Shown here: one piece after another, positions 15,213 to 60,542 of the stretch | Layout of the letters: every line of letters starts with the position of its first letter | How positions within the stretch are numbered: position 1 is the stretch's first letter | Assembly (NCBI GenBank): GCA_036823295.1 | Contig: DAISGD010000005.1 | Span: 15,260-79,259, forward strand | Direction of reading: 5' to 3' | DNA from: Acidimicrobiales bacterium | GTDB lineage: Bacteria > Actinomycetota > Acidimicrobiia > Acidimicrobiales > Acidimicrobilacustridaceae | DNA length: 64,000 nucleotides | Translations under genes and position numbers: made by a program | Notes under the pieces: model-generated | Databases searched by the model: none | The model's input: the letters and a program-made list of their open reading frames with translations, nothing else | What the model was told of the DNA's origin: nothing

Positions 15213-15281
15213 GGCGACTCCTTCGCTCATCCAGGTTCGCAGACTGGATGGGAGAGCGGGGGGTGGGGCGTCATTGCAGCC

Positions 15282-17557: not shown

Positions 17558-17597
17558 TCTTCTCGTCGGGCGTCGCGTCGGGCGTTCTTGGGGGCGA

Positions 17598-44141: not shown

Positions 44142-44777
44142 ATGTCTGACACGTCCCCCACCGGTTCCCGTCCGCCCGAGTCCGGCGGTCAGTCCGGGTC
44201 CCGCGGTCAGCCCGAGTCCGGCGGTCAGCCCGAGCCCGGCGAGCAGCCCGAGCCGTCGGCGCTGACACAGATCCGGCCCCTGTCCGACGAGGACATCCGC
44301 GACGCCCTGCCCGAGGACCTCGACGCCGCCGGCCATGTCGGGCCCTACCTGTTCCCCAACAACAACCGCCGACGTATCCCGGGGATGATCTATCTCGGGT
44401 TGGCCGCGGGCTGCCTGCTGCTGTGGGGCACCCATGCCGGCGGCAACGCGGTGCTGGTCAACGGTGGTTTCCTGGCGGCCGGGATCACCCTCGCCCTGGT
44501 GGGGGCGTATTCGATCATCGGCAGTTGGAACCTCGACGTCGACGAGCGTGACGCCTTGGTGGCCGCCGTGCGCCAGGTGGGCTTCCCGGTGGGCCACGCC
44601 TCGGCCCAGATGGGATGGCGGGGCGTGCTCAGCCGACCCACGTGGCGCATCCTGCTGTATTCGGCGGAGGATCCCCCCACCCAGCGCGGCCTCGTGCTGG
44701 TCGACGGCGTCGACGGCGAGGTGCTCGAGTGGTTCGTCGAGGAGAACCCCGAGGACTGGTCGCAGTACGACGAGTAG
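44142..44777 (+). CDS. Hypothetical membrane protein with Gly/Gln/Pro/Glu repeat N-terminus
   Basis: 211 aa. N-terminal GGQSGSRGQPESGGQPEPGEQPEP repeats and two predicted TM segments (MIYLGLAAGCLLLW, FLAAGITLALVGAYSII). No recognisable catalytic motif. Confidence 0.55.
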   Translation: MSDTSPTGSRPPESGGQSGSRGQPESGGQPEPGEQPEPSALTQIRPLSDEDIRDALPEDLDAAGHVGPYLFPNNNRRRIPGMIYLGLAAGCLLLWGTHAGGNAVLVNGGFLAAGITLALVGAYSIIGSWNLDVDERDALVAAVRQVGFPVGHASAQMGWRGVLSRPTWRILLYSAEDPPTQRGLVLVDGVDGEVLEWFVEENPEDWSQYDE

Positions 44778-45226: not shown

Positions 45227-46060
45227 GTGACGTACCCGCTTGCCCGCGACTCGCAGGTCGATGTTGCTCTTGATGTCGACAACGCGGTCATCGACTTACG
45301 CGTGCCGTACCCCCATCTCCTGCCCGATCCAGTCGACGGGCCCCGGGTCGGGATCACGACAGAGCCGACGGTCGAGGAGTCGCTGGAAGAAGAGATCCGG
45401 CGCCGGATCGCTGAAGCCATGGCCGCCTCGCCGACCCGGCCCCGACCGTTCTACGAGAGTGCCAAGCGTGCCCTCGACGTCGTGGTGGCGTCGGTCCTGC
45501 TCCTCGTCACCGGCCCCGTCATCGGGCTCCTCGCCCTCATCATCCGGCTTGAGTCGCGCGGTCCTGCCGTGTTCCGCCAGACCCGGGTGGGCCGGGATGG
45601 ACGGCTCATGTCCTTCTGCAAGTTCCGCACCATGTACACCGACGCGCGGGAGCGGTTCCCCGAGCTCTACGACTACCAGTTCACCGAGGAAGAGTTCGCC
45701 CGCTCGTACTACAAGCCCTCGGTCGACCCCCGCAACACGCCCTTCGGCCGGGCTTTCCGCAAGACCACCCTCGACGAGCTGCCCAACCTGTTCAACGTGC
45801 TCAAAGGCGACGTGAGCCTGGTCGGCCCCCGGCCCGAGCTCCCCGACTTGGTGCGGTACTACACCCCCGAACAGCTCCTGAAGTTCTCGGTGAAGTCGGG
45901 CATCACCGGGCTGGCGCAGGTGTCGGGCCGCAACAACCTCACCATCCAACAACAGATCGACGCCGACCTCGAGTACGTCCGCCGACGATCGTTCGCCTAC
46001 GACCTCGGCCTGATCCTGCGCACGGCCGTCATGGTCGGGAAGCGCGTCGGAGCCGAATGA
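45227..46060 (+). CDS. Polyprenyl-phosphate sugar-1-phosphate transferase (small 'bacterial sugar transferase' initiating enzyme)
   Basis: KRALDVVVASVLLLVTGPVIGLLALIIRLESRGPAVFRQTRVG...FCKFRTM...LDELPNLFNVLKGDVSLVGPRPE. About 70 residues extend the N-terminus. Confidence 0.85.
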   Translation: MTYPLARDSQVDVALDVDNAVIDLRVPYPHLLPDPVDGPRVGITTEPTVEESLEEEIRRRIAEAMAASPTRPRPFYESAKRALDVVVASVLLLVTGPVIGLLALIIRLESRGPAVFRQTRVGRDGRLMSFCKFRTMYTDARERFPELYDYQFTEEEFARSYYKPSVDPRNTPFGRAFRKTTLDELPNLFNVLKGDVSLVGPRPELPDLVRYYTPEQLLKFSVKSGITGLAQVSGRNNLTIQQQIDADLEYVRRRSFAYDLGLILRTAVMVGKRVGAE

Positions 46061-47034
46061 GCATCGCTCAGGTCCCCGACCTTTCCGTGCTGGTGGTCAC
46101 CTACGAATGCGCGGACTTCGTCGAAGCCTGTCTCGCCTCGGTGGTGGCCACGACCCGCGACCACCGGGTGGAGCTGGTGGTGGCGGACAACGACTCGAGC
46201 GACGACAGCGTCGGCGTGGTCCGGCGGACCCACCCCTCGGCCATCGTGGTCGAGATGGGGAGCAACACCGGCTTTGCCCGGGCGGTCAACGCGGCCATGG
46301 CCGCCTCCCGCGGACGTATCGTCTTGTTGCTCAACCCCGACACCGAGGTGCAGCCGGGGGCCATCGACGCCCTCATGGATGAGCTCGACGCTCACCCCGA
46401 GGTGGGCGTGGTGGCGCCGCTGCTCTTGAACCCGGACGGTACGGACCAGGGCACCGCCCGGTCCTTCCCCACGCCGGCCGCCGCGCTGTGGGGCCGCCGG
46501 TCCCCGCTCACCCGACTCTTCCCCCGGAATCGAGTGTCACGCCGGTACCTGATCGGTCGCGACCGACGCGGCGACGGGTCGTTCGCCGTCGACTGGGTGT
46601 CCGGCGCCTGCCTCATGGCCCGGCGGGAGACCGCGCTGGCGCTGGGCGGGCTGGACGAGGGGTTCTTCATGCACTTCGAGGACGCCGACTTCTGCCACCG
46701 GGTGAAGGACAGCGGTCGCTCAGTCATCTGCGTTCCCGCCGCCCAGGTGGTCCACGCCGAGGGCGGCTGCCGGCGGGGCTGGCCGGCGTCACAGGTCGGT
46801 CACTTCCACTACGGCGCCTACCGCTACTGGACCAAGCACCACGCGCCCCAGCCGTGGAACCCGTTGCGACTGGTGGCGGCCTTCGCCCTGGCGGCGCGGG
46901 CCGGGGGCGTGTTGGCCAGCAACAGGATGTCGCGGCGCCACGCGTCCGACTCCCGTCACACCGGCAACCCCCTTGGATCCCCCCGAATCGATGTCCGCCA
47001 CCCTGACCCGCTGACGAGAGCGATGGATTCATGA
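46057..47034 (+). CDS. Family-2 glycosyltransferase
   Basis: LSVLVVTYECADFVEACL, VVADNDSSDDS, and the FMHFEDADFCHRV motif of rhamnosyl-type GT2 enzymes. ATGA overlap at 46057. Confidence 0.85.
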   Translation: MSIAQVPDLSVLVVTYECADFVEACLASVVATTRDHRVELVVADNDSSDDSVGVVRRTHPSAIVVEMGSNTGFARAVNAAMAASRGRIVLLLNPDTEVQPGAIDALMDELDAHPEVGVVAPLLLNPDGTDQGTARSFPTPAAALWGRRSPLTRLFPRNRVSRRYLIGRDRRGDGSFAVDWVSGACLMARRETALALGGLDEGFFMHFEDADFCHRVKDSGRSVICVPAAQVVHAEGGCRRGWPASQVGHFHYGAYRYWTKHHAPQPWNPLRLVAAFALAARAGGVLASNRMSRRHASDSRHTGNPLGSPRIDVRHPDPLTRAMDS

Positions 47035-48470
47035 ACACACGAGATCTGGTCGGTCACGCCCGCCCCTACTGGAGGATCGCGGTGGTCGCCGTGTTGGGCG
47101 GCCTCATCGCCTATGTGGGCTCCTACGTCGTCAGTCCGACGTACGTCTCCTCGACGCGCCTCTTGATCCGCAGTCGCGAGTCCACGGTGCCCAGCAGCAC
47201 CGGCCAGAACCTGCAGGGCCAGCCGGTCATCGACAGCACGCTGACCAAGGCACTGGGCGAGACCCAGAGCGCCGTGGTGTCCAGTCCGGCGGTGGCTGTG
47301 GCCGTCGTCGACGCGCTTCATCTCGACCAGCCCAAGCCCCAGAGCCAGTCCATCGTGGCCAAGGCCAAGCGCGCCGTGGCCGGCACCTTCAAGCGGGGCA
47401 AGGCCTTCCTGACCCACGGCTTCTATGCCGAGCCCACCGACCGTGATGCCGCCATCCAGCGGGTCCAGGCCGGGCTCGCGGCCAAGGCCCTGAAGGACTC
47501 CTACGTGCTCGAGGTCAGTGGGTCGGCTGAGACCGCCCAGGGTGCGGTGGACGTGACCAACGCCGCCGCCGATGCCCTGGTCGCCATCAGCAGCGCCCGC
47601 TTCCAGGAGGAGGCAAACAAGAACCGGGACTTCCTGGCCGTGCAGCTGACCAAAACCCAGGGCGAGGTCGAGGCCGCCACCGCGGCCAAGAACGGGTACC
47701 AGAAAGCGAACGGGATCACCGACCCTACGGTGGCCCTTACCGTGAGCAGCGAGTCCCGGGCCCAGCTCGAGCAGGACCTGCGCGATGCCCAGACCAACGT
47801 GGCCGGCACCCAGGCGCAGCTCAATGAGGTGAACACTCGCCTGGCCGCCACCGACCCAACGGTGGCATCCAGCTCGGCGATCCAGACGGGCCGGAGCACC
47901 ACCGACATCAACACCACCCAGCAGAGCGCGGCCTATCAGGCCCTACTGGTGGATCGGAACCGCCTCGAGGGCGAACTCGCCGGGTACCAGGCCCGCCAGA
48001 CCTTTCTCAGCAACCAACTCTCGGGCTCGACCAATTCGGCGGACACCGATCAGCAGGCCGGTCTCGCTCCGCTGACGCAACGGCTGGAGGCGGCGCAGAA
48101 GAACTACCAGAGCGTCAGCACCGAGTATCAGAACGCGGTGCTGGCCGCGGACCAGAAGAGCGTGGAGGTCACCCGGATCGACGAGGCCCAGACGCCGACG
48201 TTCCCGGTGAAGCCGCTGCGCTACATCTATCTGTTCCTGGGGCTGCTGTGTGGGGCGTTGGCGGGATGGGGCCTCACCTGGCTGCATCGCCGCAAGAACC
48301 CGGTGCCCGTGGATGACGACGCCGAAGCCATCGACCTGACCGGGACCTTGCCGGTGTTCACCAACGGCTACGGGGCTGACGGGAGCGACGGCGAGTTGCT
48401 GCCCACTCCGGCGCGCACCCAGGTCGGCCGGTTCGAGATCTTCCGGCCGGAGCCGGCGGACGGGCCGTGA
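47031..48470 (+). CDS. Wzz/GumC-type polysaccharide chain-length determinant (no kinase domain)
   Basis: N-terminal TM plus the Wzz motif (YVVSPTYVSSTRLLI), a long coiled-coil-like Ala/Gln-rich periplasmic region, and a C-terminal TM (LRYIYLFLGLLCGALAGWGL). No Walker A tyrosine-kinase module. Confidence 0.75.
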   Translation: MNTRDLVGHARPYWRIAVVAVLGGLIAYVGSYVVSPTYVSSTRLLIRSRESTVPSSTGQNLQGQPVIDSTLTKALGETQSAVVSSPAVAVAVVDALHLDQPKPQSQSIVAKAKRAVAGTFKRGKAFLTHGFYAEPTDRDAAIQRVQAGLAAKALKDSYVLEVSGSAETAQGAVDVTNAAADALVAISSARFQEEANKNRDFLAVQLTKTQGEVEAATAAKNGYQKANGITDPTVALTVSSESRAQLEQDLRDAQTNVAGTQAQLNEVNTRLAATDPTVASSSAIQTGRSTTDINTTQQSAAYQALLVDRNRLEGELAGYQARQTFLSNQLSGSTNSADTDQQAGLAPLTQRLEAAQKNYQSVSTEYQNAVLAADQKSVEVTRIDEAQTPTFPVKPLRYIYLFLGLLCGALAGWGLTWLHRRKNPVPVDDDAEAIDLTGTLPVFTNGYGADGSDGELLPTPARTQVGRFEIFRPEPADGP

Positions 48471-49972
48471 CGAACCAGGGCCGCGCCGCGTCCCGCGGCC
48501 CGACCGCGACCGTCCCGGCCTCGGCCCCGGCTCCCAATGGACGATCGCGGGCAGTGATGGTCAGTACCGCGAGCCAACTCGGCGCCCGCGGCCTGCACTT
48601 GGCGCTCAACGTGGTCAGCACGCTGGCATTGATCCGCTACCTGGGACCGGACCGCTACGGCGACTTCGTGATGGTGGTGACGGTGGCCGCCATCGGCGGG
48701 TTGGTCAGCGACATGGGCCTCAACAAGCTGGGCGTCCGCGAGATCGCCCGTGACCCGTCAGCCGAGGGCGAGGTCCTCGGGAGTGTCCTGCTGGCCCGGC
48801 TGGGCCTGGGCCTGGCCGCCGTGGCCCTGACCCTGACGGCCATGGCCGTGCTCGGGGCGACCGCCCAGGTCATCACCGCCGCCGCCTTGATCTCGATGCT
48901 GTATTTCACCGAGGCCGCGTTGTCGGTGTTCATCGTCTTCCACGTCCGGATCCAACAGCAGTATGAGGCCTTTGTGCGGGTGGTGATCGAGGCCGTCGAG
49001 ACCACCCTGGTGTTGGTCCTCATCGCCCATCAGGCCTCCCTCGTGCAGTTGGTGTCCGCCCAGGTCATCGCCGCCACCATCGGTGTCGGCCTGGCGCTGG
49101 CCCTGGCCCGCCGTCGCCTGGGGTACCTCCCCGGGCTGCGCTGGTCACGGGCCGCCGGCCTGCTCCGCGAGGCGCTCCCGGTCGGACTGACCCTGCTCCT
49201 CGCCGCGGTGTACATCAAAATCCCCAGCGTCTTGCTGGTCCGGCTCCGCAGCTCCGGAGAAGCGGGGTTGTACGGGGCCGCCTACCAGCCGATCGAGTAC
49301 CTACTCCTGTCGGCGGCCGTGGTCATCAACGTGCTATTGCCGATGCTGGCCCATTCCCACCTGGGAGCGCCCGAGCGCTTCAGCCAGTTGTACCGGGGTG
49401 GCAGTGAAGCTCTGCTGGCCGGCACCATCCCGGTATCCCTGCTCATCGTCGTCGGGGGTCCGGTCCTCGTACGCACGGTCTTCGGCGCCGACTTCGCGGC
49501 CAGTGCGGCCCCCCTGCGGCTTCTGGGACTCGCCCTCATTCCGATGGTGCTCAGCTTCTGGCTGAGCGTCGTGCTGCTGTCGGGCGGCCACCAACGGATC
49601 ACGCTGGCCTATGACCTGTTGGCCTTCGTGGTCACCGTCGGTCTGTGCTTCGCCCTCATTCCTGGCTACGGCGCCACCGGGGCGGCCGTGGTCATCCTGG
49701 CCAGCAGCCTGCTGGTGGTGCTGTGCGCGCTGACGGCGGCCCGGACGCGCCTGGGGGTCTCCCTCCCGCTCGCCCGCATGCTGGCGATCCTGGCCACTGG
49801 CGCGATCGGCCTCATGGCCGCTCTGTGGCTGGTGTCGTTGGGTCTGCCGGTCGTCCCCGTGCTGGTCACCGTGCTCGGCGCCTACGGGGTGGCCCTGTGG
49901 CGGTTCGGGCTGTTGCCGTCGCCGGCCCTGTTCGACAACCACCCGCCCATCGTCGGGGCGGTGGCCGGATGA
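48467..49972 (+). CDS. Wzx-type oligosaccharide flippase (MOP superfamily)
   Basis: 501 aa with about 12-14 hydrophobic segments. Typical start LALNVVSTLALIRYLGPDRYGDF. Confidence 0.8.
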   Translation: MTNQGRAASRGPTATVPASAPAPNGRSRAVMVSTASQLGARGLHLALNVVSTLALIRYLGPDRYGDFVMVVTVAAIGGLVSDMGLNKLGVREIARDPSAEGEVLGSVLLARLGLGLAAVALTLTAMAVLGATAQVITAAALISMLYFTEAALSVFIVFHVRIQQQYEAFVRVVIEAVETTLVLVLIAHQASLVQLVSAQVIAATIGVGLALALARRRLGYLPGLRWSRAAGLLREALPVGLTLLLAAVYIKIPSVLLVRLRSSGEAGLYGAAYQPIEYLLLSAAVVINVLLPMLAHSHLGAPERFSQLYRGGSEALLAGTIPVSLLIVVGGPVLVRTVFGADFAASAAPLRLLGLALIPMVLSFWLSVVLLSGGHQRITLAYDLLAFVVTVGLCFALIPGYGATGAAVVILASSLLVVLCALTAARTRLGVSLPLARMLAILATGAIGLMAALWLVSLGLPVVPVLVTVLGAYGVALWRFGLLPSPALFDNHPPIVGAVAG

Positions 49973-50967
49973 ATCAGCTCCCCTTCGTCTCCGTCGTGAT
50001 TCCCACCTACAACCGCTGCGACGTGATGGAGACAACGCTCGCACACCTGCTGTCCCAGGACTATCCCAGCGACCGGTTCGAGATCATCGTGGGCGACAAC
50101 TCCACCGATGCCACGCCGGAGATGGTCGAGCAGGTGGCGGCGACGTCGAGGGCACCCGTCCACCTCCTCTGGAACGAGGAGCGGTTGCCGGCGGTGAAGC
50201 GCAATGCCGCGCTGCGCCTCGCCCAGGGCGACCTGGTGTTGTTCTTCAACGACGACGTGTGGGCCCACCCCCAGCTGCTGGCTGAGCACGCCAGGACCCA
50301 CGCCGAGGCCGAGGCGCCCATCGCCGTGCTCGGCCACGTCGAGCAGTCACCGGCCATGCCCCAGACCCCGTTCACCGAGTGGTACCAGCCCTTCGCCTAC
50401 GACGAGATCGCCGACCGAGCCGGTGAGCCCCTGCCGTACCGCTACTCGTGGTCGATGAACCTCTCGTTCCCGCGGCGGGAGATGGTCGAGCGCGACCTCG
50501 TCTTCCACGAGGACTGGGCCAACATCGGTCACGAGGATGTCGAGCTCGGATATCGGTGGGTGTCGGCGGGGCGCTCGCTCGTGTACAACCCGGCCGCTCG
50601 GGCCGAGCACTACCACCCGCACGGATTGACCAGCGCGTGCCGGGTGCAGGAGTCGATCGGTCGTGGCGTGCGCGATCTCGAGGTGCTGGTGGACGACCCG
50701 GGCCTCCTCGAGCGCTATGGCGTGTTCAGTTGGCGCAACGGCACGCGGGCGGTCGTCCGGGGCGTCGCCCGCCGCGGTCTCTTCAACGCCGTCACGGTGC
50801 CGCCGCTGCAATCGTGGCTCGAGTCCCGGACCCGAAATACCGCCCTCACCGAGTGGCTCTATTGGAAGGTGCTGCTCCACCACACCAACCGCGGCTACCG
50901 CAACCAGCCCCCCCGCCACCCGCAGCCCCTCACCGTCCTGCCGGCGCGGTCTGAGGTGCCGTCATGA
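49969..50967 (+). CDS. Family-2 glycosyltransferase
   Basis: ORF 49645-50967 trimmed to the ATG at 49969 (MNQLPFVSVVIPTYNRCDVM), overlapping the flippase stop (ATGA). DxD-like FNDDV. Confidence 0.85.
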   Translation: MNQLPFVSVVIPTYNRCDVMETTLAHLLSQDYPSDRFEIIVGDNSTDATPEMVEQVAATSRAPVHLLWNEERLPAVKRNAALRLAQGDLVLFFNDDVWAHPQLLAEHARTHAEAEAPIAVLGHVEQSPAMPQTPFTEWYQPFAYDEIADRAGEPLPYRYSWSMNLSFPRREMVERDLVFHEDWANIGHEDVELGYRWVSAGRSLVYNPAARAEHYHPHGLTSACRVQESIGRGVRDLEVLVDDPGLLERYGVFSWRNGTRAVVRGVARRGLFNAVTVPPLQSWLESRTRNTALTEWLYWKVLLHHTNRGYRNQPPRHPQPLTVLPARSEVPS

Positions 50968-53900
50968 CCGCCGTGGCGCCGCCGGTCGGCCGTCGCGGGG
51001 TCGCCCACGGGCTCGTGCTGGCGGGCGCCGGCGCGCTGGCCGGGGTGGTTGCCGTCGTGGCCGGCCAGCACGGCATGATCGGCCTTGTCGCGGTGGCCGT
51101 GGTCGCGGTGGCCGTGGTGGCCGCGGTGGTGGGGCGGGCCCATCTCCGCCCGCTGAGGCCCGGCGCCCTGCTCGGCGCCGGTTCGCGCCCGGCCCCCGGC
51201 CATCCCGCCCCGGTGGCACCCGATCGCCTGCTCTCGGCGCTGTTGCTCGCCCTGGCCATCATGGCCGCCGGCACCCTCGCCGTGGCCGCCGCCATGCTCG
51301 GCGTGAAGGGGGCGATGTTGCTGGTGGCGCTGCTGGCCGGCGCCACGATCTGCTTCCTGTATCGGGCCGAGATCGGCCTCGTGGTGTTCGGGCACGGCAA
51401 GCACCGGGGCACGCCGTTGTGGGCCCAGTCGCCGCTGTTCGAGCCGGTGCGCAAGCTGCATCCGCCCGAGTCGCTGTCAGCCCCGCTGGCGGTGATGGTG
51501 GCCGTCGCCGCCGTCGCCGGCGCCGGGGTTCTGGCTTGGTTGGGGGCGTCGCTGGGGATGAAGGGGCCGATCCTGCTGATCGGGCTCGTGGCCGTGGTGG
51601 CCTTCCTGGTCTTCGTCCGACCGAGGGCCGACGCCCTGCTGTTCATCCTGCCGTGCTCGCTGGTGCTGTTCCTCCACAAATCCTTCACCCCCCTCCATCT
51701 GGTCAACAGCGGCGCGCCGGCCATCTACATCACCTCGGTCGGTGTGCTGCTGATCGTGTTGTACGGCGTGTGGGCTGCGGAGGGCACCATGCGCGCCGAC
51801 CTGCGGGTCGCCTTCCGCCGCCCCATCCTGTGGATCCCTCTGGTCGGCGCGGTGGTGCTACTGCCGAGCATCCTGGCCGCCACCGACGTGACCCTGAGCA
51901 TGGCCGAGCTTGTGCGCATGGCGTGGATGTACCTGCTGTATGTCTACGTGGCCGTACGGGTCCGTCGTCACACCCAGGTGCTCCTGTTGTTGACCGGCCT
52001 CGGCATCTTCGCCGTCGTCGAGTTCGTGGTGGTGGTCCTGCAGTGGAAGACCGGCGGGGTGCTCGGCCTCTCCTTCCTGGGGGTCCCGACCGAGCTGGGC
52101 GAGCGGGTGATCAATGACGGCAGTCTCGGGCGACCCTTCGGCACCATCGTCCACCCGGTCTTCATGGGAGCGACCATGGGCGCGCTGGGTTTGCTGTTCC
52201 TCGGGGTGGGATTGAGCGTCCGGGAGCTGCGGCTCAAGCTGGCGTCCCTCGCCCTGGTGCCGGTCTGCCTCATCCCGCTGTTCCTGGCCCACACCCGCGC
52301 CGCGGCCATCGCCTTCCTCCCGGTGGCCTTGGCGGTGGTGGTCACCAGTGCCGTGCAGGGGCGGATCAGCACCCGCTCGCTCAAGCAGATGGCATTGGTG
52401 GGGCTCGTGGCCGCGGCGGTGCTGTACCCGGTGCTGTCCAAGCAGTTCTCGGAGAACTTTTCGAGCGACCATTTCTCGGTCGAGGTCGAGTCCCGAGTCC
52501 AGCTCAACGACCTGGCCCTGAACGTGATCGCCGACCATCCCGAGACCGGCGTAGGGCTCAACAACTTCCAGGCGGTGCAGGACCGCTACGACAACTACGG
52601 CCTGCTCTTCGCCGGGAACCCGGTGCACAACCTGTACCTGCTCCAGACGGCCGAGACCGGCTACTTGGGACTGGCCGGCCTGTTGCTGGTCGGCGCGGGG
52701 CTGCTGCTCACCAGCTGGCGCCTGGCCCGCAGCCGGGATCCACTGCTGGGCGGGCTCGGCACCGGCGTCACCGCGGTGGTGGTGTTCTTCGCCATCGAGG
52801 AACTGCTCGGCTTCTCACTGCGCCAGGAGATCCCACTCGCCCTGTGGTGGTTGCTGGCCGGGATGGCCGTAGCCGGCACGGCGATGACCGCCGAGCGCAT
52901 CCCGCCCCGACCGCCGGCCTCCCTGCGGGTCCCGCGCCCGGGTGGGGGCAGCGGCCGCGACCGGATGCTCGTGGGGGCCGGGTCGAATGGGCACGGGTCG
53001 AATGGACAGAGCTCGAACGGGCACAGGCGCAGCGGGGCGCGCTGGCGTCTGCCCCGAACGTCACGGCGTCGCCTGGGGAGGATCGGGGCGGCCATGCTCG
53101 TCGCCTGCGTCTTGAGCCCGTGGCCGACCAGCGCCGGTGCCGGGGCCAACCCTCTCGCCGCAGTCCGCATCGTCTTCGCCGCCACCGACGAAACGGTCGG
53201 GGGCAACCAGGGGGTCTTCGTGGCCAACGGGGACGGCTCGGGAATCACCCGGGTCACCCCGAACGACGGGCTGTTCTACGACTTCCCGTCGTGGGCCATG
53301 GGCGGCACCAAGATCGTGTTCTCCAAGCGTGACGGGGGGCCGGGTACGCCGGAGAACATCTACCTGATGAACGCCGACGGTTCGGGGGTGCAGGCGCTCA
53401 CCCGCAGCCCGTGGCGCAACCATCAGCCCAAGGTGTCGGCGGATGGCCGGCGGGTCATCTTCTCCGGGTTCGTCCCCGGGACCCGGTTGGTGGCCATCTA
53501 CCAGATCGACCTTGACACGCTCCTGGTTCGCAACCTCTCGGCTGTCCATTCCCACTCGGTGATGGCCGACGCCGACCCCAAGTACACCGCCGATGGTCGC
53601 TCCATCGCCTTCGCCCGCAGCCGCGACGACCAAGGCGACGCCAAGACCCAGGTGTACCTGATGAACGCTGACGGCACGGGCCGCTACCGGGTCACCAACG
53701 ACGGCTGGTACGACGTCGATCCGGAGGTGTCTCCGGACAGCCGCTCCGTGGCCTTCTCGAGCTACCGCGGTCCGGGGACCCCTCAGCAGGAAGGGCGGGA
53801 GTTCGATGCCAAGTCGCAGGACTTCTACCTCGGGGTTCGGGACCTGGCCACCGGCACGGAGCAAACCCTGACCGGCGGGGAGAACTGCGCCGCCCGAGAC

Positions 53901-55205
53901 CCGAACCACCCCTGCCTTCCCAGTGAGGGCTCGGCCTATGTCCCGGTGTGGAGCCCTGACGGCGGCCAGCTCGGCTACATCACCGCCCTCGACTCCAATC
54001 GCACCTGCCTTTGCGTGATGGCCCGCAACGGATCGAATGCCCATGCCGTCATCGCCCGGCCCGGCCTCTCGATGACCTGGTTCGACTGGGTCATTCCGGG
54101 CCAGGCCCCGGACACGGCCGTCACCGACATCGGCGGGGCCAAGCCGGCTGACCGGATGCTGGTGGCCGGCACGCAGACCGCGTCGGAGAGCGACCCGGCG
54201 TCGCGACCCATCCTCGAGGTCACCACCCGTGATCTGTGGGACCGCACCGAAGTGCCGATCCCGGGAGGACTGAACCCCCGCTTCGCCCGATGGAACGCGG
54301 ATCGCTCGACGGTCGTGTTCAGCTCGGTGGTCCCGGGCGACGTGCCCCGCCCCGAGGCGCCGCCGGTCCCTCCCGCCGGGCAGCGGCGTCACGAGCACTT
54401 CACCCTGGCTGACCTCGATGCCGTGTTCCACCCGCCGGTGGTCCGGCCCGAGGTGGCCCGCGAGCAGGTGTTCGTGTCGGGCGCCCAGGGGGTCTTCCCG
54501 CTCACGAACCCCGGCACCGAGGACTGGCACGACGGCATCGTGGCCGGCGACCTTCGGGGCAACACCGAGCCGGACATCTCACCCGACGGCCGCTATGTGG
54601 TGACCACCAACGTCTCGTCGGTCACCAACGAGTCGTTCCTGCTGCGCATCGACCTGGTCACTGGTGAGCGGTTCAACCTCACCAACGCCACGTCGGGGGC
54701 GATGCCGGTCGACGACGCCCAACCCCGCTTCTCACCCGATGGCCAGTCCCTCGCCTTCACCTCGAGTTTCGAGGGTCACGCCGGCGTGTACGTCATGGAT
54801 GCCGCGACCGGCTTGGGGGTGCGCTCGCTCACCGAGGACGACTTCTTCAACACTGCGCCGGCGTGGTCACCCGACGGCCGCTCCATCGTCTACGCCAGCT
54901 ACCGCGGCGACACCCTGAAGCTGCTCCAGTCCCTGGCGCTCCCGGCCGAGGCGGGGACCATCCCCCTCGGCGACTGGTACCTGGTCAGGGTCGATGTGGC
55001 CACCGGTGCCGAGCAGGTGATCACCGCGGCTGCCGCCTCGCCGACGCTGGCCCCGGCCTGGTCACCCGACGGCAGCGAGATCGCCTACATCTCGACCACC
55101 GACGGGTTCCAGCCCGACGTCTACGTGGTGTCCGCCACGGGCGGCGCCTCCCGGCCCCTGCAGATCACGGGACTGACCCAAGAACACTCGGTGGATTGGA
55201 AATGA
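50964..55205 (+). CDS. Fusion protein: Wzy/O-antigen-ligase-like polytopic membrane domain + long TolB-like PD40 beta-propeller region
   Basis: Single 1413-aa frame with no stop. Residues 1 to about 640 are polytopic membrane, with O-antigen ligase/polymerase features (LAHTRAAAIAF, GNPVHNLYLLQTAETGYLGLAG). A Pro/Arg/Gly linker carries GSNGH repeats and a signal-peptide-like RRRLGRIGAAMLVACVLSPWPTSAGA. At least ten PD40-type repeats follow: SADGRRVIFSG, TADGRSIAFAR, SPDSRSVAFSS, SPDGGQLGYI, NADRSTVVFSS, SPDGRYVVTT, SPDGQSLAFTS, SPDGRSIVYAS, SPDGSEIAYIS. Confidence 0.8.
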   Translation: MTAVAPPVGRRGVAHGLVLAGAGALAGVVAVVAGQHGMIGLVAVAVVAVAVVAAVVGRAHLRPLRPGALLGAGSRPAPGHPAPVAPDRLLSALLLALAIMAAGTLAVAAAMLGVKGAMLLVALLAGATICFLYRAEIGLVVFGHGKHRGTPLWAQSPLFEPVRKLHPPESLSAPLAVMVAVAAVAGAGVLAWLGASLGMKGPILLIGLVAVVAFLVFVRPRADALLFILPCSLVLFLHKSFTPLHLVNSGAPAIYITSVGVLLIVLYGVWAAEGTMRADLRVAFRRPILWIPLVGAVVLLPSILAATDVTLSMAELVRMAWMYLLYVYVAVRVRRHTQVLLLLTGLGIFAVVEFVVVVLQWKTGGVLGLSFLGVPTELGERVINDGSLGRPFGTIVHPVFMGATMGALGLLFLGVGLSVRELRLKLASLALVPVCLIPLFLAHTRAAAIAFLPVALAVVVTSAVQGRISTRSLKQMALVGLVAAAVLYPVLSKQFSENFSSDHFSVEVESRVQLNDLALNVIADHPETGVGLNNFQAVQDRYDNYGLLFAGNPVHNLYLLQTAETGYLGLAGLLLVGAGLLLTSWRLARSRDPLLGGLGTGVTAVVVFFAIEELLGFSLRQEIPLALWWLLAGMAVAGTAMTAERIPPRPPASLRVPRPGGGSGRDRMLVGAGSNGHGSNGQSSNGHRRSGARWRLPRTSRRRLGRIGAAMLVACVLSPWPTSAGAGANPLAAVRIVFAATDETVGGNQGVFVANGDGSGITRVTPNDGLFYDFPSWAMGGTKIVFSKRDGGPGTPENIYLMNADGSGVQALTRSPWRNHQPKVSADGRRVIFSGFVPGTRLVAIYQIDLDTLLVRNLSAVHSHSVMADADPKYTADGRSIAFARSRDDQGDAKTQVYLMNADGTGRYRVTNDGWYDVDPEVSPDSRSVAFSSYRGPGTPQQEGREFDAKSQDFYLGVRDLATGTEQTLTGGENCAARDPNHPCLPSEGSAYVPVWSPDGGQLGYITALDSNRTCLCVMARNGSNAHAVIARPGLSMTWFDWVIPGQAPDTAVTDIGGAKPADRMLVAGTQTASESDPASRPILEVTTRDLWDRTEVPIPGGLNPRFARWNADRSTVVFSSVVPGDVPRPEAPPVPPAGQRRHEHFTLADLDAVFHPPVVRPEVAREQVFVSGAQGVFPLTNPGTEDWHDGIVAGDLRGNTEPDISPDGRYVVTTNVSSVTNESFLLRIDLVTGERFNLTNATSGAMPVDDAQPRFSPDGQSLAFTSSFEGHAGVYVMDAATGLGVRSLTEDDFFNTAPAWSPDGRSIVYASYRGDTLKLLQSLALPAEAGTIPLGDWYLVRVDVATGAEQVITAAAASPTLAPAWSPDGSEIAYISTTDGFQPDVYVVSATGGASRPLQITGLTQEHSVDWK
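52980..53024 (+). repeat. In-frame 15-nt triple repeat (GSNGH/GSNGQ/SSNGH) in the fusion linker
   Basis: gggtcgaatgggcac / gggtcgaatggacag / agctcgaacgggcac. Confidence 0.85.
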
Positions 55206-56230
55206 CCGTGTCGAACTCCGCCGAGCTGACTGACCTCAACGACCGGCTAGCCCCGGGCGACCCCGCCACGCACCGCCCTGCCGCTGAGGTCCTGGATGTG
55301 ACGGCGGTGATCGTCAACTGGAACACCGCCGACCTCCTCGACCAGTGCCTGACCAGCCTGCGCGACCACCGGGCCCCCGGGCACGGGGTCGAGGTCATCG
55401 TGGTCGACAACGGCTCGACCGATGGCTCGGTGGCCATGATCGAGCAGCGCTGGCCGGAGGTGACCGTCGTGGCCAACGCCGACAACGTCGGCTTCTGCCG
55501 GGCCAATAACCAGGCCATCGAGATCAGCGACAAGCCCTATCTCCTGCTCATCAATGCCGATGCCCGCCTGACCCCCGGCTGCCTCCGGCACCTCGTGGCC
55601 CGGATGGAGTCCGATGACCGGGTCGGCGTCGTCGCCCCCCGCCTCGAGTACGGCGACGGTCGCTTCCAGCGGTGGACCGCCGGTCGGGCTCCGTCGTTGC
55701 GGAGCGTCGCCAGTTACCTTTTCCTCACTGATCGGCTCGACGGTCGGTTCCCCGCCCTGGCCGGCACATACCTCGGCCACGACACCGCCGTCGCCTTCGA
55801 GCCGCAATGGGTGTCCAGCGCCTGCATGCTCGTGCGGCGGGCCGTGGTCGACGACGTCGGACCCCTCGACGAGCGCATCTTCGTCTACATGGACGACGTC
55901 GAGCTCTGCCAGCGGGCCCGGGATGGTGGCTGGGCGGTCTGGTACGAGCCGGCGGCGACGGCGGTCCATCTCATGGGTCAGAGCACCAAGCGGCGGACGG
56001 GGGTGGCGTCGCCCGAGGCCCTGCGGGCGTTCAACCGGTACTTCCAGCGCCGCCACGGCCGGGGTCGAACCACCGCACTGAGAGCCCTGCAGGCCGGCGG
56101 TTTCGGGCTCCGGGTTCTCGCCTACGGCGCCACCGGGCTCGTTCTGCACGACGACGGCCGTCGGGCCCAGGCCCGGGCCCATCTCTCCCATTTGAAACTG
56201 AGTCTCGAGACACCGGAGGTAGCAGCATGA
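55202..56230 (+). CDS. Family-2 glycosyltransferase
   Basis: ORF 54863-56230 trimmed to the ATG at 55202 (MTVSNSAEL...), with an ATGA overlap. VTAVIVNWNTADLL, VVDNGSTDGS, YMDDVELCQRA. Confidence 0.85.
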   Translation: MTVSNSAELTDLNDRLAPGDPATHRPAAEVLDVTAVIVNWNTADLLDQCLTSLRDHRAPGHGVEVIVVDNGSTDGSVAMIEQRWPEVTVVANADNVGFCRANNQAIEISDKPYLLLINADARLTPGCLRHLVARMESDDRVGVVAPRLEYGDGRFQRWTAGRAPSLRSVASYLFLTDRLDGRFPALAGTYLGHDTAVAFEPQWVSSACMLVRRAVVDDVGPLDERIFVYMDDVELCQRARDGGWAVWYEPAATAVHLMGQSTKRRTGVASPEALRAFNRYFQRRHGRGRTTALRALQAGGFGLRVLAYGATGLVLHDDGRRAQARAHLSHLKLSLETPEVAA

Positions 56231-57174
56231 GAATCCTGATCACCGGCGGAGCCGGAATGCTGGGCAGCTCGTTGATCCCGGCGCTGATCGGCGCCGGACA
56301 CGAACTTGTGGTCACCGACATCGACCTGAGCGTCCGCCGACCGTGGGGCTCGTCAGGGCCCACGCTGGGGCGGCTCGACGTACGTTCGCGCCACGACATC
56401 GCCGACGCCTTCGAGCAGGTCCGCCCGCAGTTCGTGCTGCACCTGGCGGCCGAAACGTCGTTGGAGATCTCCGACGCCGAGCCCGACCACGGATACCTGA
56501 CCAATGCCATCGCTACCAAGTACATGGCGCTGGCCTGCCGGCGGGCCCAGGTCCCGCTGGTGTACATCAGCACGGCCGGGGTCTTCGATGGCACCAAGGT
56601 GGGGCCGTACACCGAGTTCGACGCCCCGAACCCGCTCAACGTCTACGGCGACTCGAAGCAGAAGGGCGAAGTGTTCGTCCGGGAACTCCTCGACGACTTC
56701 TACATCATCCGGGCGGGATGGATGGTGGGCGGCGGCCCCAAGAAGGACCACAAGTTTGTGGCCCGCATCCTGCAGCAGGTGCGCGAGGGCCGCACGGCGA
56801 TCCACGCCGTGACCGACAAGTTGGGCACCCCCACCTATACGCCGGACTTCGCCGGATGCTTCCTGGGCCTCATCCAGTCCGAGGTGTACGGCACCTATCA
56901 CATGGCCTGTGGGGGAGAGGGCAGCCGCTACGACGTGGCCAAGCGGATCCTCGAGATCCTCGGCCGTGACGACATCGAGCTCGTGGCGGTGACGTCGGAG
57001 TACTTCGTCGAGGAGTTCCCGTCCGAGCGGCCCTATTCCGAGATCATGCGGAACATGGCCCTCGATCTCCAGGGGATGAACACCATGCGCCCCTGGCCGG
57101 ACGCGCTGGACGACTACATCCACACCTACTTCCCCGACCTCGTCGCCCCCGGCCGGGTGCTCAGCCCGGCCTGA
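56227..57174 (+). CDS. NAD(P)-dependent sugar-nucleotide reductase/epimerase, RmlD-like SDR
   Basis: ORF 55807-57174 trimmed to the ATG at 56227 (MRILITGGAGMLGSSL), with an ATGA overlap. YGDSK catalytic motif. 315 aa. Confidence 0.75.
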   Translation: MRILITGGAGMLGSSLIPALIGAGHELVVTDIDLSVRRPWGSSGPTLGRLDVRSRHDIADAFEQVRPQFVLHLAAETSLEISDAEPDHGYLTNAIATKYMALACRRAQVPLVYISTAGVFDGTKVGPYTEFDAPNPLNVYGDSKQKGEVFVRELLDDFYIIRAGWMVGGGPKKDHKFVARILQQVREGRTAIHAVTDKLGTPTYTPDFAGCFLGLIQSEVYGTYHMACGGEGSRYDVAKRILEILGRDDIELVAVTSEYFVEEFPSERPYSEIMRNMALDLQGMNTMRPWPDALDDYIHTYFPDLVAPGRVLSPA

Positions 57175-57190
57175 CCCGCCCCACGGCTGA

Positions 57191-57253
57191 CCGAACGACC
57201 CCGAACGACCCCGAACGACCCCGAACGACCCGAACGACCCGAACGACCCGAAC
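57191..57253. repeat. Intergenic tandem repeat CCGAACGACC (4 x 10 nt, then 2 x 9 nt and a partial unit)
   Basis: Units at 57191, 57201, 57211 and 57221 (10 nt), then 57231 and 57240 (9 nt), then a partial unit. It ends 5 nt before the GGAGA ribosome-binding site of the gene starting at 57267. Confidence 0.95.
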
Positions 57254-57266
57254 AAGGAGACCCCCG

Positions 57267-58331
57267 ATGGCTGGCCCGCTCCCCGGTGATGACCGCTCTG
57301 TCGTCGTCGTGATTCCGATGCCCAACGACCCCGACTGGGGGCTGTGGGACGACCTGTCCGAAGACATCCCCATCATCGTGGTCGACGACAGCGACGGGAA
57401 CCTGGCCCCGCCGCCGCGGTCCAACGTCCGATACTTCGACTATGCGGCACAGAAGGCGATCTGCGGCGAGCACTACGACGCCATGCCTCACAAGAGCGCG
57501 GCCAGTCGCAACTTCGGGCACTACCTGGCCTACCAGGAGGGCTTCGACGTCGTCATCGCCCTCGACTACGACTGCCGGACCCGGCCGGGCTGGCTGGAGG
57601 CCCATCTCGAGTCGCTGACCAAGGCCGTCGAGGCCCCGGCGCTCGAGGGGAACTGGATCAACTCGATCGAGGCCCCGGGCTTCTACTCGCGGGGTTACCC
57701 CTACGAGTACCGCAACGCCGAGGCCTCAGCGGTGACCGAGACCCTCGCCACCGGCGAGGTGAAGATGAACATGGGAGTCTGGGACCACATCCTCGACCTC
57801 AACGGCGTGGACAAGCTGGCCGCCGAACCGCCCTACGACCCGGGCCTGCGGGCCGATACCAACCTGGTGGCGCTGGGCAATCTTCCCCTCTGTGGCATGA
57901 ACACGGCGTTCGCCGCCGAGGTCACACCCGCCTACTTCTTCCTCCCCGATCTTTGGATCGACGGGTGGCAGCTCAGCCGCCACGACGACATCTGGGGCGG
58001 CTACGTCGTCAAGAAGCTGATGGATCGCCGGGGCGATCTGCTCACGTTCGGCCGCCCGGTCGTCGAGCACACCAAGCAGACCCGTCTCGAGCGTGTGGTC
58101 CTGCTCGAGCACTGGATGCACCTCATGGCGACCGGCTTTTACGAGATCGTCGACGAGGCCGCCGACACGGTGGAGATGGGCCCGTACTCCGACATGTTCG
58201 GGGCCTTCGTGGAGGCCTATCGCGCCGGAGTCGAGCGGAGCACGCGGCCGGCCCACTACCGGCAGGTCTACCGCGAGCTGGGCGAATGGATGGACCGCTG
58301 GTCGAGGGCCTTCTCCTCCGGAGCCTCCTGA
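57267..58331 (+). CDS. GT75-family protein: homologue of plant reversibly glycosylated polypeptide / UDP-L-arabinopyranose mutase
   Basis: Collinear similarity by eye to plant RGP, listed as ours versus RGP. [9 protein letters not shown]...[10 protein letters not shown] vs IVIPTIRNL...[23 protein letters not shown]...VVIALDYDC vs FKDSACRCFGYMVS...[18 protein letters not shown] vs [32 protein letters not shown] vs [36 protein letters not shown] vs GRYDDMWAGWCIKV. Confidence 0.7.
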   Translation: [354 protein letters not shown]

Positions 58332-58347: not shown

Positions 58348-59505
58348 GTGAGGGTGGCGGTCGACGCAACCGGGCTCGGTTCGGGCCAGGGTGGCGACGA
58401 GACGATGATGGCCGGGCTCCTGGAGGGGTTGGCCGAAGCGGCCCGGCCGGGGGACAGCTTCCCGCTCATCGTCCGTGACGGCGTCACCCTGCCAGCCCCG
58501 GTGGCCGACCACCCCGCGTTCTCCGTCCACTCGATGCGTCGCCTGCCGGGGGCGCTGCACTTCACCGCCCGTCTCCCGCGGGCGTTGAGTCGGCTGCGGC
58601 CCGTCCCCGACCTCGTCTGCGCCGTCACTCACGGCCCCCTGCGGTCTCCAGCGCCGGTAGCCCTCTTCGTCCAGGACCTCTCGTTCCATCACCACCCTGA
58701 GCACTACCCGGTCGTGGCCCGGTGGCGGCTCCGCACGGTGGTGCCCCGCCAGGCTCGCCGGGCCCGCGCCGTGCTCACCGTCAGCGAGTTCTCCCGCTCA
58801 GACCTGATCGCCAGCTACGAGCTGCCGCCTGAGCAGGTGGTGGTCGTGCCGGATGCGGTGGCCGTCCCCCCGCCGTGGGACGACACCGCCGCGGCCGAGG
58901 GTCGCCAGTGGTTGGCGTCCCAAGGGGTGGACGGGCGCTTCATCCTGTGCCTGGGCAACCTGCACCCCCGGAAGAACGTGGCCCGGTTGGTGGCCGGTTT
59001 CGCCCAGGCCCGGGCCGGCGCCCCCGATCTGGCCGATGTGCGCCTCGTGGTGGCCGGTGCCCGATGGTGGGGCGCCGGCGAGGCCGCGGCCGCGGCCCAG
59101 GCTCCGGACGGGTCGGTCGTTTTCCTCGGTCGGTTTGACGACGATCGTCGTGAGCAGCTCCTGCGACTGGCCGACGCCCTGGCCTACGTGTCGGTGTTCG
59201 AGGGTTTCGGGCTCCCCCCGCTCGAGGCCATGGCCCGGGGCACCGTGGTCCTGGCGTCGGACGCCACGGCGGTAGCCGAGACGGCCGGGGACGGCGCGCT
59301 CCTGGTCGATCCCTACGACGTGCACGCCATCGCCGAGGGGCTGGTGCGGGTGCTGTCCGACGAGCAGCTTCGGGTCGAGCTGCGCCGGCGTGGCGCGGCC
59401 CGGGCGGCCGGCTATGACGTCGGCTCCACCGGTCGAAGGGCCCGAGAGGCCTTCGCCGCCGCCATCGGGCTGACGGCGGCACCGCGCCCCGGGGCGGTGT
59501 CGTGA
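58348..59505 (+). CDS. Family-4 (GT-B, Glycos_transf_1) glycosyltransferase
   Basis: ORF 58093-59505 trimmed to the GTG at 58348 (VRVAVDATGLG...). C-terminal motif YVSVFEGFGLPPLEAMARG. Confidence 0.8.
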   Translation: MRVAVDATGLGSGQGGDETMMAGLLEGLAEAARPGDSFPLIVRDGVTLPAPVADHPAFSVHSMRRLPGALHFTARLPRALSRLRPVPDLVCAVTHGPLRSPAPVALFVQDLSFHHHPEHYPVVARWRLRTVVPRQARRARAVLTVSEFSRSDLIASYELPPEQVVVVPDAVAVPPPWDDTAAAEGRQWLASQGVDGRFILCLGNLHPRKNVARLVAGFAQARAGAPDLADVRLVVAGARWWGAGEAAAAAQAPDGSVVFLGRFDDDRREQLLRLADALAYVSVFEGFGLPPLEAMARGTVVLASDATAVAETAGDGALLVDPYDVHAIAEGLVRVLSDEQLRVELRRRGAARAAGYDVGSTGRRAREAFAAAIGLTAAPRPGAVS

Positions 59506-60542
59506 AGATGAGTCTGCGCATCGCCCTCGTGCTCGGCGGGATGGCCGTTCTGGCCGTCCTGGCCGTCGGGGTGTTCCTCGTGCTGCTGGCGGTCAAGAAT
59601 CGGCCGCCGAAGGTGCCAGGCGATTTCGCGGCCCCGAGCGCTCTGGCCCCGGCCGCCGGTGCGGCACCGTCGGGCAGCCTCTTTTACGACTCGGATCGGA
59701 CCGGCAACTTCGAGGTGTACGTCGCCCCGTCACCGGGAGCGACCCCGACCGCGCTGACCCACGACCCGACCTGGGATAGCTGGTGGCCCCGGCTATCGCC
59801 CGACCGTCATCGGGTGCTGTTCTACCGGACGCCCAAGGGCGTGCACGACACCAACTTCTCCAAGACGCACCTGTGGATGATGAACGCCGACGGAACCGGT
59901 CCGGTCGAGTTGCGGCCACCGGGGCTCGACGGTTGGGCCCAGCAGGGGCACGCTGATTGGTCTCCCGACGGGCAGCAGTTGGTGATGTTCGGGGGGAAGA
60001 ACACCAATCCCCAGATCTACGTCACCCAGGCGACCGGGCAGTCGCCGCGCCGGCTGACCGACCGGGGTGGGATCAATGTCGACCCGAGTTTCTCGCCCGA
60101 CGGCCGGACCATCGCCTTCGTGGGCTGCCCCCAGTCGGTGTGTTTCGAGGACGACTACGAGATCTACACGATGGCGGCCGACGGCGCTTCGCCAGCCCAG
60201 CGGATGACCGATGATCGCCTGCGCGACCACGATCCCTATTACTCGCCCGACGGCACCCGCATCGCCTGGCTGACCCGGACCTCGACCCATGGTCAGCACC
60301 CTGGGGGGTCATGGAACATCCGCATCGCCAACGCCGACGGATCCGACCAGCGTCGCCTGACCGACGACGACCAGATCAACAGCAAGCCGGAATGGTCCCG
60401 TGACGGCCAGACGATCTACTTCCACCGGTTCGAGATGGGTCGCCTCACCGGCTTCAGCATCTTCTCGATCGACATCGCCGGGTCGCACATGGTCGAGGTC
60501 ACGGCCGGGCAGCCCGGAGTGAACGAGTTCCCGTCGACATGA
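59502..60542 (+). CDS. Membrane-anchored TolB-like PD40 beta-propeller protein
   Basis: N-terminal TM (IALVLGGMAVLAVLAVGVFLVLLAV) and PD40 repeats SPDRHRVLFYR, SPDGQQLVMFG, SPDGRTIAFVG, SPDGTRIAWLT, SRDGQTIYFHR. The GTG at 59502 overlaps the upstream stop. The ATG at 59508 is an alternative start. Confidence 0.8.
   Translation: MKMSLRIALVLGGMAVLAVLAVGVFLVLLAVKNRPPKVPGDFAAPSALAPAAGAAPSGSLFYDSDRTGNFEVYVAPSPGATPTALTHDPTWDSWWPRLSPDRHRVLFYRTPKGVHDTNFSKTHLWMMNADGTGPVELRPPGLDGWAQQGHADWSPDGQQLVMFGGKNTNPQIYVTQATGQSPRRLTDRGGINVDPSFSPDGRTIAFVGCPQSVCFEDDYEIYTMAADGASPAQRMTDDRLRDHDPYYSPDGTRIAWLTRTSTHGQHPGGSWNIRIANADGSDQRRLTDDDQINSKPEWSRDGQTIYFHRFEMGRLTGFSIFSIDIAGSHMVEVTAGQPGVNEFPST

Follow-up and report, generated by a model that had tools for sequence, protein, structure and literature searches.

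A single open reading frame that probably joins a Wzy-type polymerase to a tandem PD40 propeller partner in an Acidimicrobiales polysaccharide cluster

A continuous frame encodes the fused protein

Here, we analyzed a 64,000-nucleotide (nt) stretch of an Acidimicrobiales bacterium genome (GenBank assembly GCA_036823295.1, contig DAISGD010000005.1, positions 15,260 to 79,259 of the forward strand; hereafter the window, numbered from its first letter), focusing on one long gene of its polysaccharide cluster. The gene occupies 50964..55205 (+) and is laid out as a predicted Wzy-type polymerase, a linker, a signal-anchor helix and two PD40 propellers; we consider it probable that it represents a genuine single-gene fusion of such a polymerase with a dedicated extracytoplasmic partner made of tandem six-bladed propellers. 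An earlier note on this DNA had proposed a single uninterrupted frame of 1413 amino acids (aa), and both the list of open reading frames (ORFs) and the translation bear this out, with an ATG start and no internal stop codon. The GC content at third codon positions (GC3) ranged between 0.86 and 0.95 in each 300-nt segment of the gene, linker included, and was ~0.9 across the junction, which is the coding signature of a ~70% GC genome (the window has 69.9% GC). Three features speak for the start codon: a GAGGTG motif lies 6 nt upstream of position 50964, the ATG overlaps the stop codon of the preceding GT2 gene as ATGA, and the N-terminal consensus is kept in the aligned homologues.

The same product was found repeatedly in separate ENA, NCBI and JGI assemblies, where 10 of the 13 members of the protein's 90%-identity cluster are 1413 aa long and at least 99.5% identical. 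One member measures only 703 aa (P0333) and was traced to the metagenome-assembled genome (MAG) GCA_002403895.1 (locus L010). A separate gene call in a near-identical MAG could be taken to mean that the long frame is a sequencing or assembly error joining two ordinary genes. However, positions 5862–5955 of L010 consist of ~94 Ns, a scaffold gap that lies over the GSNGH-repeat linker (~52949–53048 in the window), and the frame in L010 is open from stop to stop across it. The short call arose because this gap over a low-complexity linker made the gene caller restart at the next ATG, and P0333 was rejected as evidence that a near-identical strain has a natural split; the GSNGH-repeat region seems prone to assembly problems. 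Together with the agreement of 10 independent assemblies, the existence of dozens of fused orthologues at 37–62% identity, the GC3 of ~0.9 through the junction and the lack of any separating stop or frameshift, this refutes the error reading, to which we assign next to no probability: the long frame is not an assembly artefact.

The N-terminal half has a Wzy/WaaL-type fold

When residues 1–669 were scanned alone against Pfam, Wzy_C (PF04932) matched residues 435–573 (52266..52682, +) with 48.7 bits against a gathering cutoff of 31.7 (E 8.9e-13). The match was not reported in the Pfam scan of the full-length protein, and PF04932 is likewise missing from the precomputed Pfam list of an identical protein (P0001). 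Two members of the 90% cluster carry the JGI name 'Tol biopolymer transport system component' and nothing else; the exact protein is under-annotated.

Structural models were generated with AlphaFold for each half, covering residues 1–724 and residues 668–1413. The model of residues 1–724 had a mean predicted local distance difference test score (pLDDT) of 76.9, with most of the core above 85. In Foldseek comparisons, its best match in the PDB, and the only one below E 0.001, was the ligase WaaL (7tpg_B; E 1.4e-6, TM-score 0.67 normalised to the target), followed by a chain of the RodA–PBP2 complex (8tj3_B; E 5.8e-3). A phmmer search of the Wzy core against PDB sequences returned no match even at E<=10, and the similarity is found at the level of the fold only. 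The N-terminal domain, which the earlier note had described as polytopic and of Wzy_C type, was thereby placed in this superfamily by both the profile search and the model. Its superfamily features are all present, namely a Wzy_C hidden Markov model (HMM) score above threshold, a topology of ~12 transmembrane (TM) helices with a large loop of conserved basic residues, and a WaaL-like GT-C fold.

The Wzy core spans residues 168–645 (51465..52898, +) with 12 TM helices, as delimited by the model, the WaaL fold and the related clusters. Across 50 homologues, its extracytoplasmic loops 238–257, 364–397 and 487–556 are invariant, as are residues R381, R390, H397, R445, H503, E507 and R511; the first three of these lie in loop 364–397, while H503, E507 and R511 belong to the helical domain 487–556. 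The core is preceded by an N-terminal extension (residues 1–167; 50964..51464, +) with four predicted TM helices (11–35, 38–56, 88–111 and 114–142 in the AlphaFold model). The extension has no family match. It is shared by the large clade of fused proteins that includes the query. Bare relatives and the smaller fused lineages lack it, their cores beginning at about residue 5–30.

A linker and a signal-like helix connect the two halves

The Wzy core is followed by a linker (residues 646–705; 52899..53078, +), predicted from the model and the loop charges to be cytoplasmic, which contains 13 Lys/Arg against one Asp/Glu and is modeled as disordered. Its length and sequence vary among homologues, and the GSNGH repeats that had been noted there earlier were found at residues 673–687 (GSNGH/GSNGQ/SSNGH; nt 52980–53024). 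Residues 706–726 (RIGAAMLVACVLSPWPTSAGA; 53079..53141, +) form a putative signal-anchor or former signal peptide, as indicated by homologue comparison and topology. Nearly all fused homologues retain an Arg-rich linker and one hydrophobic helix, and the layout of the internal segment (positive start, hydrophobic stretch, AxA-like end) is that of the signals of free-standing propeller proteins.

The topology was predicted by combining the modeled helices with the loop charges according to the positive-inside rule. The Lys/Arg-rich loops (57–87, 143–172, 274–290, 333–335, 419–421, 465–469, 589–592 and the linker 646–705) all fall on one side, and the invariant Wzy loops and the propellers on the opposite one. 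The resulting model has 4 + 12 + 1 TM helices, with the N-terminus inside and the Wzy core ending in the cytoplasm; the 17th helix (706–722) would return the chain across the membrane and place the propellers on the outer face, beside the invariant Wzy loops. Four near-invariant Cys residues in propeller 1 (975, 984, 1015 and 1017) fit an extracytoplasmic location. Judging from its likeness to the free-standing signals, the 17th helix appears to be the retained signal sequence of a once-separate propeller gene. The proposal of a former signal peptide thus holds as regards origin and signal-type layout. It does not hold as regards function or position: with the Wzy core ending on the cytoplasmic side, the helix would be topologically required rather than a relic, and it does not directly follow the in-frame ATG at 52965 (M668), from which the hydrophobic segment (706–722) is 38 codons away.

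Internal initiation at ATG 52965 was considered and rejected, as no Shine–Dalgarno motif precedes this codon. A GGGGAGGA motif lies 12 nt upstream of another in-frame ATG, 53094 (M711), within the code for the hydrophobic helix (53075–53096 in the window); a start there would yield a product without the charged signal start. Gene callers pick ATG 53094 when the sequence upstream is broken. Export of the propellers by the Tat pathway was also rejected, since the query reads TSRRRLGRIG, many homologues have a single Arg or sequences such as GRFRF, and the S/T-R-R-x-F-L-K motif is not conserved. The hydrophobic stretch has a median length of 16 residues in fused proteins versus 13.5 in free-standing propeller proteins, a measurement in which the algorithm often took the last Wzy helix instead.

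The C-terminal half is modeled as two six-bladed propellers

PD40 (PF07676) matched the full-length protein with 103 bits (103–113 bits across scans), and seven PD40 repeats passed when the C-terminal part was scanned alone. The AlphaFold model of residues 668–1413 was confident (pLDDT 88.6, predicted TM-score 0.85) and ordered directly after the hydrophobic helix. Each half of the propeller model contains ~24 strands, which amounts to two six-bladed propellers and 12 blades in total; the earlier note had counted at least ten PD40/TolB-type blades and had seen room for two propellers, and the predicted TolB-like structure agrees with both. Propeller 1 covers residues ~735–1043 (53166..54092, +), as delimited by the model, Foldseek and conservation, and propeller 2 covers residues ~1065–1412 (54156..55199, +), as delimited by the model, Foldseek and comparison with propeller 1. 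The two are 32% identical (E 6e-24), which points to an origin by internal duplication.

The top Foldseek matches of the propeller model were tandem-propeller proteins, namely tricorn protease (1k32_A, the best) and LRP6, and the TolB propeller superposed on it at 2.6–3.1 Å over ~315 columns. Apart from the repeats, the propellers contain the conserved motifs WFDW and EDWHDG (EDWRDG in the family consensus). Pfam scans detected no peptidase domain after propeller 2, where the protein ends directly, at residue 1413.

Fused, split and propeller-less relatives

With the whole protein as query, a word-indexed search returned 70 clusters; the proteins are without exception long (784–2096 aa), and nearly all combine Wzy_C with PD40. 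The named sources of fused homologues (Acidimicrobiales, Microthrix, Humibacillus and Propionibacteriaceae) all belong to the Actinomycetota, and some members bear the automated names 'O-antigen ligase family protein' or 'Tol biopolymer transport system component/O-antigen ligase'. When the Wzy core alone was searched exhaustively with HMMER (50%-identity clusters, E<1e-30), 86 clusters emerged, ~45 of which are fused; fused proteins of 1200–1600 aa and bare ones of 490–510 aa occur side by side at similar likeness to the query. The proteins that were labeled fused by length all carry the homologous double propeller, with 36–48% identity across the propellers. A peptide-pattern scan of genome contigs found one locus only, as the patterns had been drawn from a single query and were too specific. 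In a cultured Micromonospora (L001), Wzy_C is followed in frame by PD40 repeats (Pfam, 45 bits), although BLAST aligned the Wzy core only; the propeller sequence has diverged, and the base close to the junction at 11355 is ambiguous (N), a caveat with which we count this locus as fused. One further protein (P0046; 2096 aa, Logan assembly) has Polysacc_synt (Wzx flippase), Wzy_C and PD40 in its precomputed Pfam list and may be a triple fusion that unites flippase, polymerase and propellers.

The loci of these relatives differ in how the two halves are encoded. Four fused loci (the window, L002, L005 and L006) have an identical gene order. Four split loci (L003, L007, L008 and L009, the last labeled Chloroflexota) lie in the same syntenic cluster, where a bare Wzy_C gene of 495–513 aa is followed by a propeller gene with overlapping stop and start codons. 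The downstream gene is complete in L007, L008 and L009 and encodes 710–757 aa with a double propeller and its own signal sequence; in L003, the contig ends after the first 230 aa. The free-standing propeller proteins start with Sec-type signal sequences, e.g. MRLKLGLVVALAILGSLSMPAVGQA/AV. In L004 and on the P0075 contig, the Wzy is bare and no double propeller is found. On gene content and order, the fused, split and propeller-less forms appear to be three states of one cluster. The split loci and their signal sequences support the earlier note's view that two ancestral genes became one and that the internal helix derives from a signal peptide. On a rough neighbor-joining tree of Wzy cores, built without support values, bare and split forms are basal, one large clade that includes the query is entirely fused, and small fused lineages are scattered among bare ones. 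The tree suggests that the pairing is old, that fusion is derived, and that transitions probably happened more than once.

The Wzy cores are 40–60% identical among named Actinomycetota, and relatives are found in a MAG labeled Chloroflexota. This unusually conserved core hints at a common surface glycopolymer across Actinomycetota and the Chloroflexota-labeled MAG. Genes for an RmlD-like reductase and an RGP-like protein (PF03214) are present in most related clusters (window 56230–58331; L002 and L004–L010). As a side observation, genes resembling galactose oxidase/GlxA (Glyoxal_oxid_N, GO-like_E_set, Kelch) are found beside three of the four clusters of split type (L003 2208–3962, L007 1–1246, L008 20709–22133), and none was seen among the window ORFs scanned.

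The surrounding polysaccharide cluster

The fused gene belongs to a Wzx/Wzy-type, translationally coupled cluster at ~45.2–62.4 kb, most well-defined gene junctions of which overlap by 4 nt. Upstream on the same strand, Pfam assigned a priming phosphoglycosyl transferase (45227–46060), a GT2 glycosyltransferase (46057–47034), a Wzz/GNVR co-polymerase (47031–48470), a Wzx flippase (48467–49972) and, directly 5' of the fused gene, a second GT2 whose start is uncertain and which ends at 50967. Downstream, from 55205 onward and also on the plus strand, are a further GT2 (start uncertain, end at 56230), the RmlD-like reductase (56230–57174), the RGP-like PF03214 protein (57267–58331), a GT4 that ends at 59505, a small stand-alone PD40 protein, and two genes that are syntenic with the related clusters, one thiolase-like (60577–61746) and one for a hexapeptide acyltransferase (61749–62405).

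The small PD40 protein (59502..60542, +) has 346 aa and its own N-terminal membrane anchor, as judged from Pfam and from comparison with the fused propellers, to which it is 24–31% identical. Its gene, which belongs to the gene order shared by the four fused loci, follows the GT4 gene in L002, L004, L005, L006 and L010 and is found nearby in L008 (three copies) and L009, but is not present on the L007 flank or the P0075 contig. The small PD40 protein may act together with the fused propellers.

Among the window ORFs scanned against Pfam, the fused protein is the only one with Wzy_C and the only polymerase candidate. In the syntenic loci, too, its counterpart is the sole polymerase candidate beside a Wzx, a co-polymerase and a priming transferase. 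From this gene context, the fused protein is probably the Wzy of its pathway, with polymerization as its predicted activity. No lipopolysaccharide (LPS) genes were detected among the ORFs scanned in these 64 kb of the genome. A promoter scan of 44–63 kb found nothing, and the terminator-like matches lie within genes.

Comparison with known systems

The query resembles the characterized Wzy and WaaL enzymes (PDB 7TPG) in its Wzy_C match, 12-TM core, large helical extracytoplasmic loop, invariant Arg/His residues and WaaL fold, as well as in the position of its gene among those for Wzx, Wzz and a priming transferase. In contrast, the characterized members are bare proteins of ~400–500 aa, whereas the query adds four N-terminal helices, a 17th helix and ~690 aa of propellers. 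In the models known to us, Wzy is treated as a bare membrane enzyme under the control of Wzz-type co-polymerases alone. Wzy polymerases are also hard to study. In the literature, Wzy enzymes are placed among the GT-C-fold membrane proteins, with their N-termini in the cytoplasm and with sequences that vary greatly (PMC12502699), whereas the core of the query family stays 40–60% identical across classes; the same source associates the Wzy_C domain with inverting, beta-linkage polymerases (PMC12502699).

With TolB, the propeller half shares the six-bladed PD40 fold, and sequence matches to TolB chains reach E ~1e-17. However, the query scored 178.8 bits against the TIGR02800 equivalog cutoff of 343.15 and matched only the propeller positions of that profile. 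In addition, Pfam scans detected no TolB N-terminal domain (the TolA-binding domain), and a TM helix directly precedes propeller 1. There are also two tandem propellers in the query, and a Tol–Pal system or outer membrane would not be expected in an actinomycete host. Identity as TolB was rejected on the cutoff, the missing N-terminal domain and the second propeller, leaving a TolB-like fold only. The propellers of tricorn, DPP-IV and S9 peptidases (PF26549, PF26550, PF00930) are similar in that tricorn gave the best Foldseek match and has tandem propellers, and precomputed Pfam matches to Tricorn_N and Tricorn_2nd occur across the query family. A peptidase identity of any of these kinds was nevertheless rejected, because only the propeller-region families match and no catalytic domain follows propeller 2.

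Tandem extracytoplasmic beta-propellers that bind polysaccharide are known from PorZ and from the periplasmic domain of the sensor kinase BT4663. In the type IX secretion system of Porphyromonas gingivalis, the tandem propeller of PorZ binds anionic LPS and presents it to the transferase PorU (PMC8545088). By analogy, PorZ would be the best precedent for glycan-handling propellers, although the PorZ and BT4663 propellers are seven-bladed and not of PD40 type, are neither fused to nor encoded beside a Wzy, and function in a Gram-negative outer-membrane setting. The split loci are reminiscent of RodA–PBP2, i.e. a SEDS protein with a class B penicillin-binding protein (PBP), where a polytopic polymerase of undecaprenyl-diphosphate-linked substrate is paired with a single-anchor partner that has a large outside domain. 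PBP2 activates RodA. The partner in the query is a propeller that does not look like an enzyme, in place of a transpeptidase, and the analogy is structural and logical only. The mycobacterial EmbC and AftD are polytopic GT-C-type enzymes with fused extracytoplasmic carbohydrate-binding modules, which are thought to hold the acceptor polymer; they differ from the query in enzyme family, donor lipid and the fold of the appended domain.

Two papers were considered as precedents and set aside, as one on the Lipocone superfamily names Wzy, TolB and propellers in unrelated contexts (PMC12419801), and one on Actinoplanes wps clusters deals with ordinary Wzy proteins of ~400–450 aa and mentions no propeller, PD40 or TolB (PMC13390465). 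In the full-text literature searched, which leaves most subscription journals outside its scope, no Wzy with an appended or adjacent propeller is described, in line with the earlier note, which knew of no characterized example. The accompanying caveat on novelty was justified in part, as the architecture is neither rare nor a one-off and recurs in dozens of clusters; it is already in the databases, and uncharacterized.

Functional interpretation of the fusion

In many lineages the Wzy and propeller parts are either fused or encoded side by side and coupled, which leads us to expect that they act as one physical unit, and on this recurrent pairing we consider it very likely that the two work together. 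In the mechanism that we propose, Wzy would act on undecaprenyl-diphosphate-linked sugar repeat units, and the propellers would sit over its active site, on the same membrane face as the invariant loops, and bind or guide the growing lipid-linked polymer. Alternatively, the propellers might serve to dock Wzy onto a partner, be it the co-polymerase, the small PD40 protein or the cell wall. The polymer-guiding, chain-length and wall-docking roles suggested in the earlier note are likewise putative. The layout would then resemble, by analogy, a polymerase paired with a single-pass partner. Several points weigh against a fused polymerase with a dedicated propeller partner. The contact between propellers and Wzy is deduced from adjacency and fusion, with the two halves modeled separately. 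The clusters of L004 and the P0075 contig, at least, do without a double propeller, which marks it as an accessory that not every cluster needs. The Wzy_C family also takes in ligases and O-oligosaccharyltransferases, and sequence alone cannot tell ligases from polymerases. PD40 propellers bind proteins or peptides (TolB–Pal, S9 peptidases) more often than glycans. Finally, cleavage could occur at the AGA/G site that follows the short hydrophobic stretch and would leave the mature proteins untethered.

Such cleavage would make the fused protein polyprotein-like, with signal peptidase I cutting after AGA (residues 724–726; 726/727) and releasing a free double propeller. The fusion would then ensure only co-translation, equal stoichiometry and co-localized insertion, and the mature products would be those of the split loci. 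The hydrophobic core is indeed short (IGAAMLVACVL, ~11 residues) and is followed by SPWPTSAGA/GA with a typical –3/–1 pattern, free-standing homologues begin with cleavable-looking signal peptides, and the ready interconversion of fused and split states on the tree implies that tethering is perhaps not critical. However, many fused homologues have hydrophobic stretches of 16–20 residues, nearer to a TM helix (albeit by a noisy measurement), and a freed 75-kDa soluble protein would need some other means of retention in a cell with no outer membrane; we regard cleavage as a possibility to be taken seriously, if a doubtful one. It is unlikely, in our estimate, that the Wzy_C domain is instead a ligase or oligosaccharyltransferase of the WaaL or PglL kind, which would move finished polymer to an acceptor, with the propellers binding that acceptor (a protein, lipid or wall component) or being themselves glycosylated. 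This would suit the best fold match to the ligase WaaL, the Pfam name of Wzy_C ('O-antigen ligase'), the common binding of proteins by PD40 propellers and the PorZ precedent, which concerns attachment of glycan to an acceptor. On the other hand, the cluster contains a Wzx and a Wzz-like co-polymerase and no other polymerase candidate, what looks like an actinomycete host (69.9% GC, MshC-like gene) would not be expected to have the lipid A-core acceptor on which WaaL acts, and Wzy_C is common in genuine beta-linkage Wzy polymerases (PMC12502699).

A catalytic role of the propellers was also weighed, in which they would act as a lyase or hydrolase to trim the polymer or set it free, like the dedicated glycanases of other exopolysaccharide machineries. 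The acidic and aromatic residues of the conserved non-repeat motifs described above would agree with such a role, as would a weak Pfam match to Pectate_lyase22, a propeller-fold oligogalacturonate lyase (E 6.6e-4, 18.9 bits). This match, however, falls short of the 30-bit cutoff and is confined to 60 residues of shared PD40-like repeat. The propellers of TolB, LRP6 and tricorn, which head the structural matches, serve in binding or gating and are not enzymes, and no metal-site or catalytic-residue match was established; a catalytic propeller is accordingly very improbable.

Returning to the fused polymerase with its propeller partner, a bolder and tentative extension, which we think could be right but would not expect to be, is that the tandem PD40 propeller is an unrecognized core subunit of one conserved Wzx/Wzy clade in Actinomycetota and Chloroflexota, as bacteria with no outer membrane. 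By analogy with the action of class B PBPs on SEDS proteins, it might, as a single-pass extracytoplasmic partner, bind the nascent glycan, switch or steer Wzy and cooperate with the small PD40 protein. If this were true, Wzy-dependent assembly in these phyla would have a component that is absent from Gram-negative models. The occurrence of the double propeller in adjacent, fused or lost form within otherwise identical clusters amounts to a natural experiment on the contribution of an extracytoplasmic partner to polymerization in cells with no outer membrane, and the cultured Micromonospora relative may make its role testable by genetics.

Other genes of the window

Apart from the polysaccharide cluster, a CysRS-like gene lies at 39267–40409 (+); its best match is the mycothiol ligase MshC (TIGR03447), where its 404 bits fall short of the cutoff of 485, a hint at an actinomycete. 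The ORFs at 27998–29437 (+) and 44142–44777 (+) have no Pfam match despite GC3 values of 0.89–0.90, a strong coding signature; the latter, which lies just 5' of the polysaccharide cluster, also has no NCBIfam match. Finally, purine-catabolism-like genes are found at 13440–26077 (–), among them an adenine deaminase, two xanthine-dehydrogenase-type molybdopterin subunits and an M20 peptidase or amidohydrolase, and appear unrelated to the fused gene.

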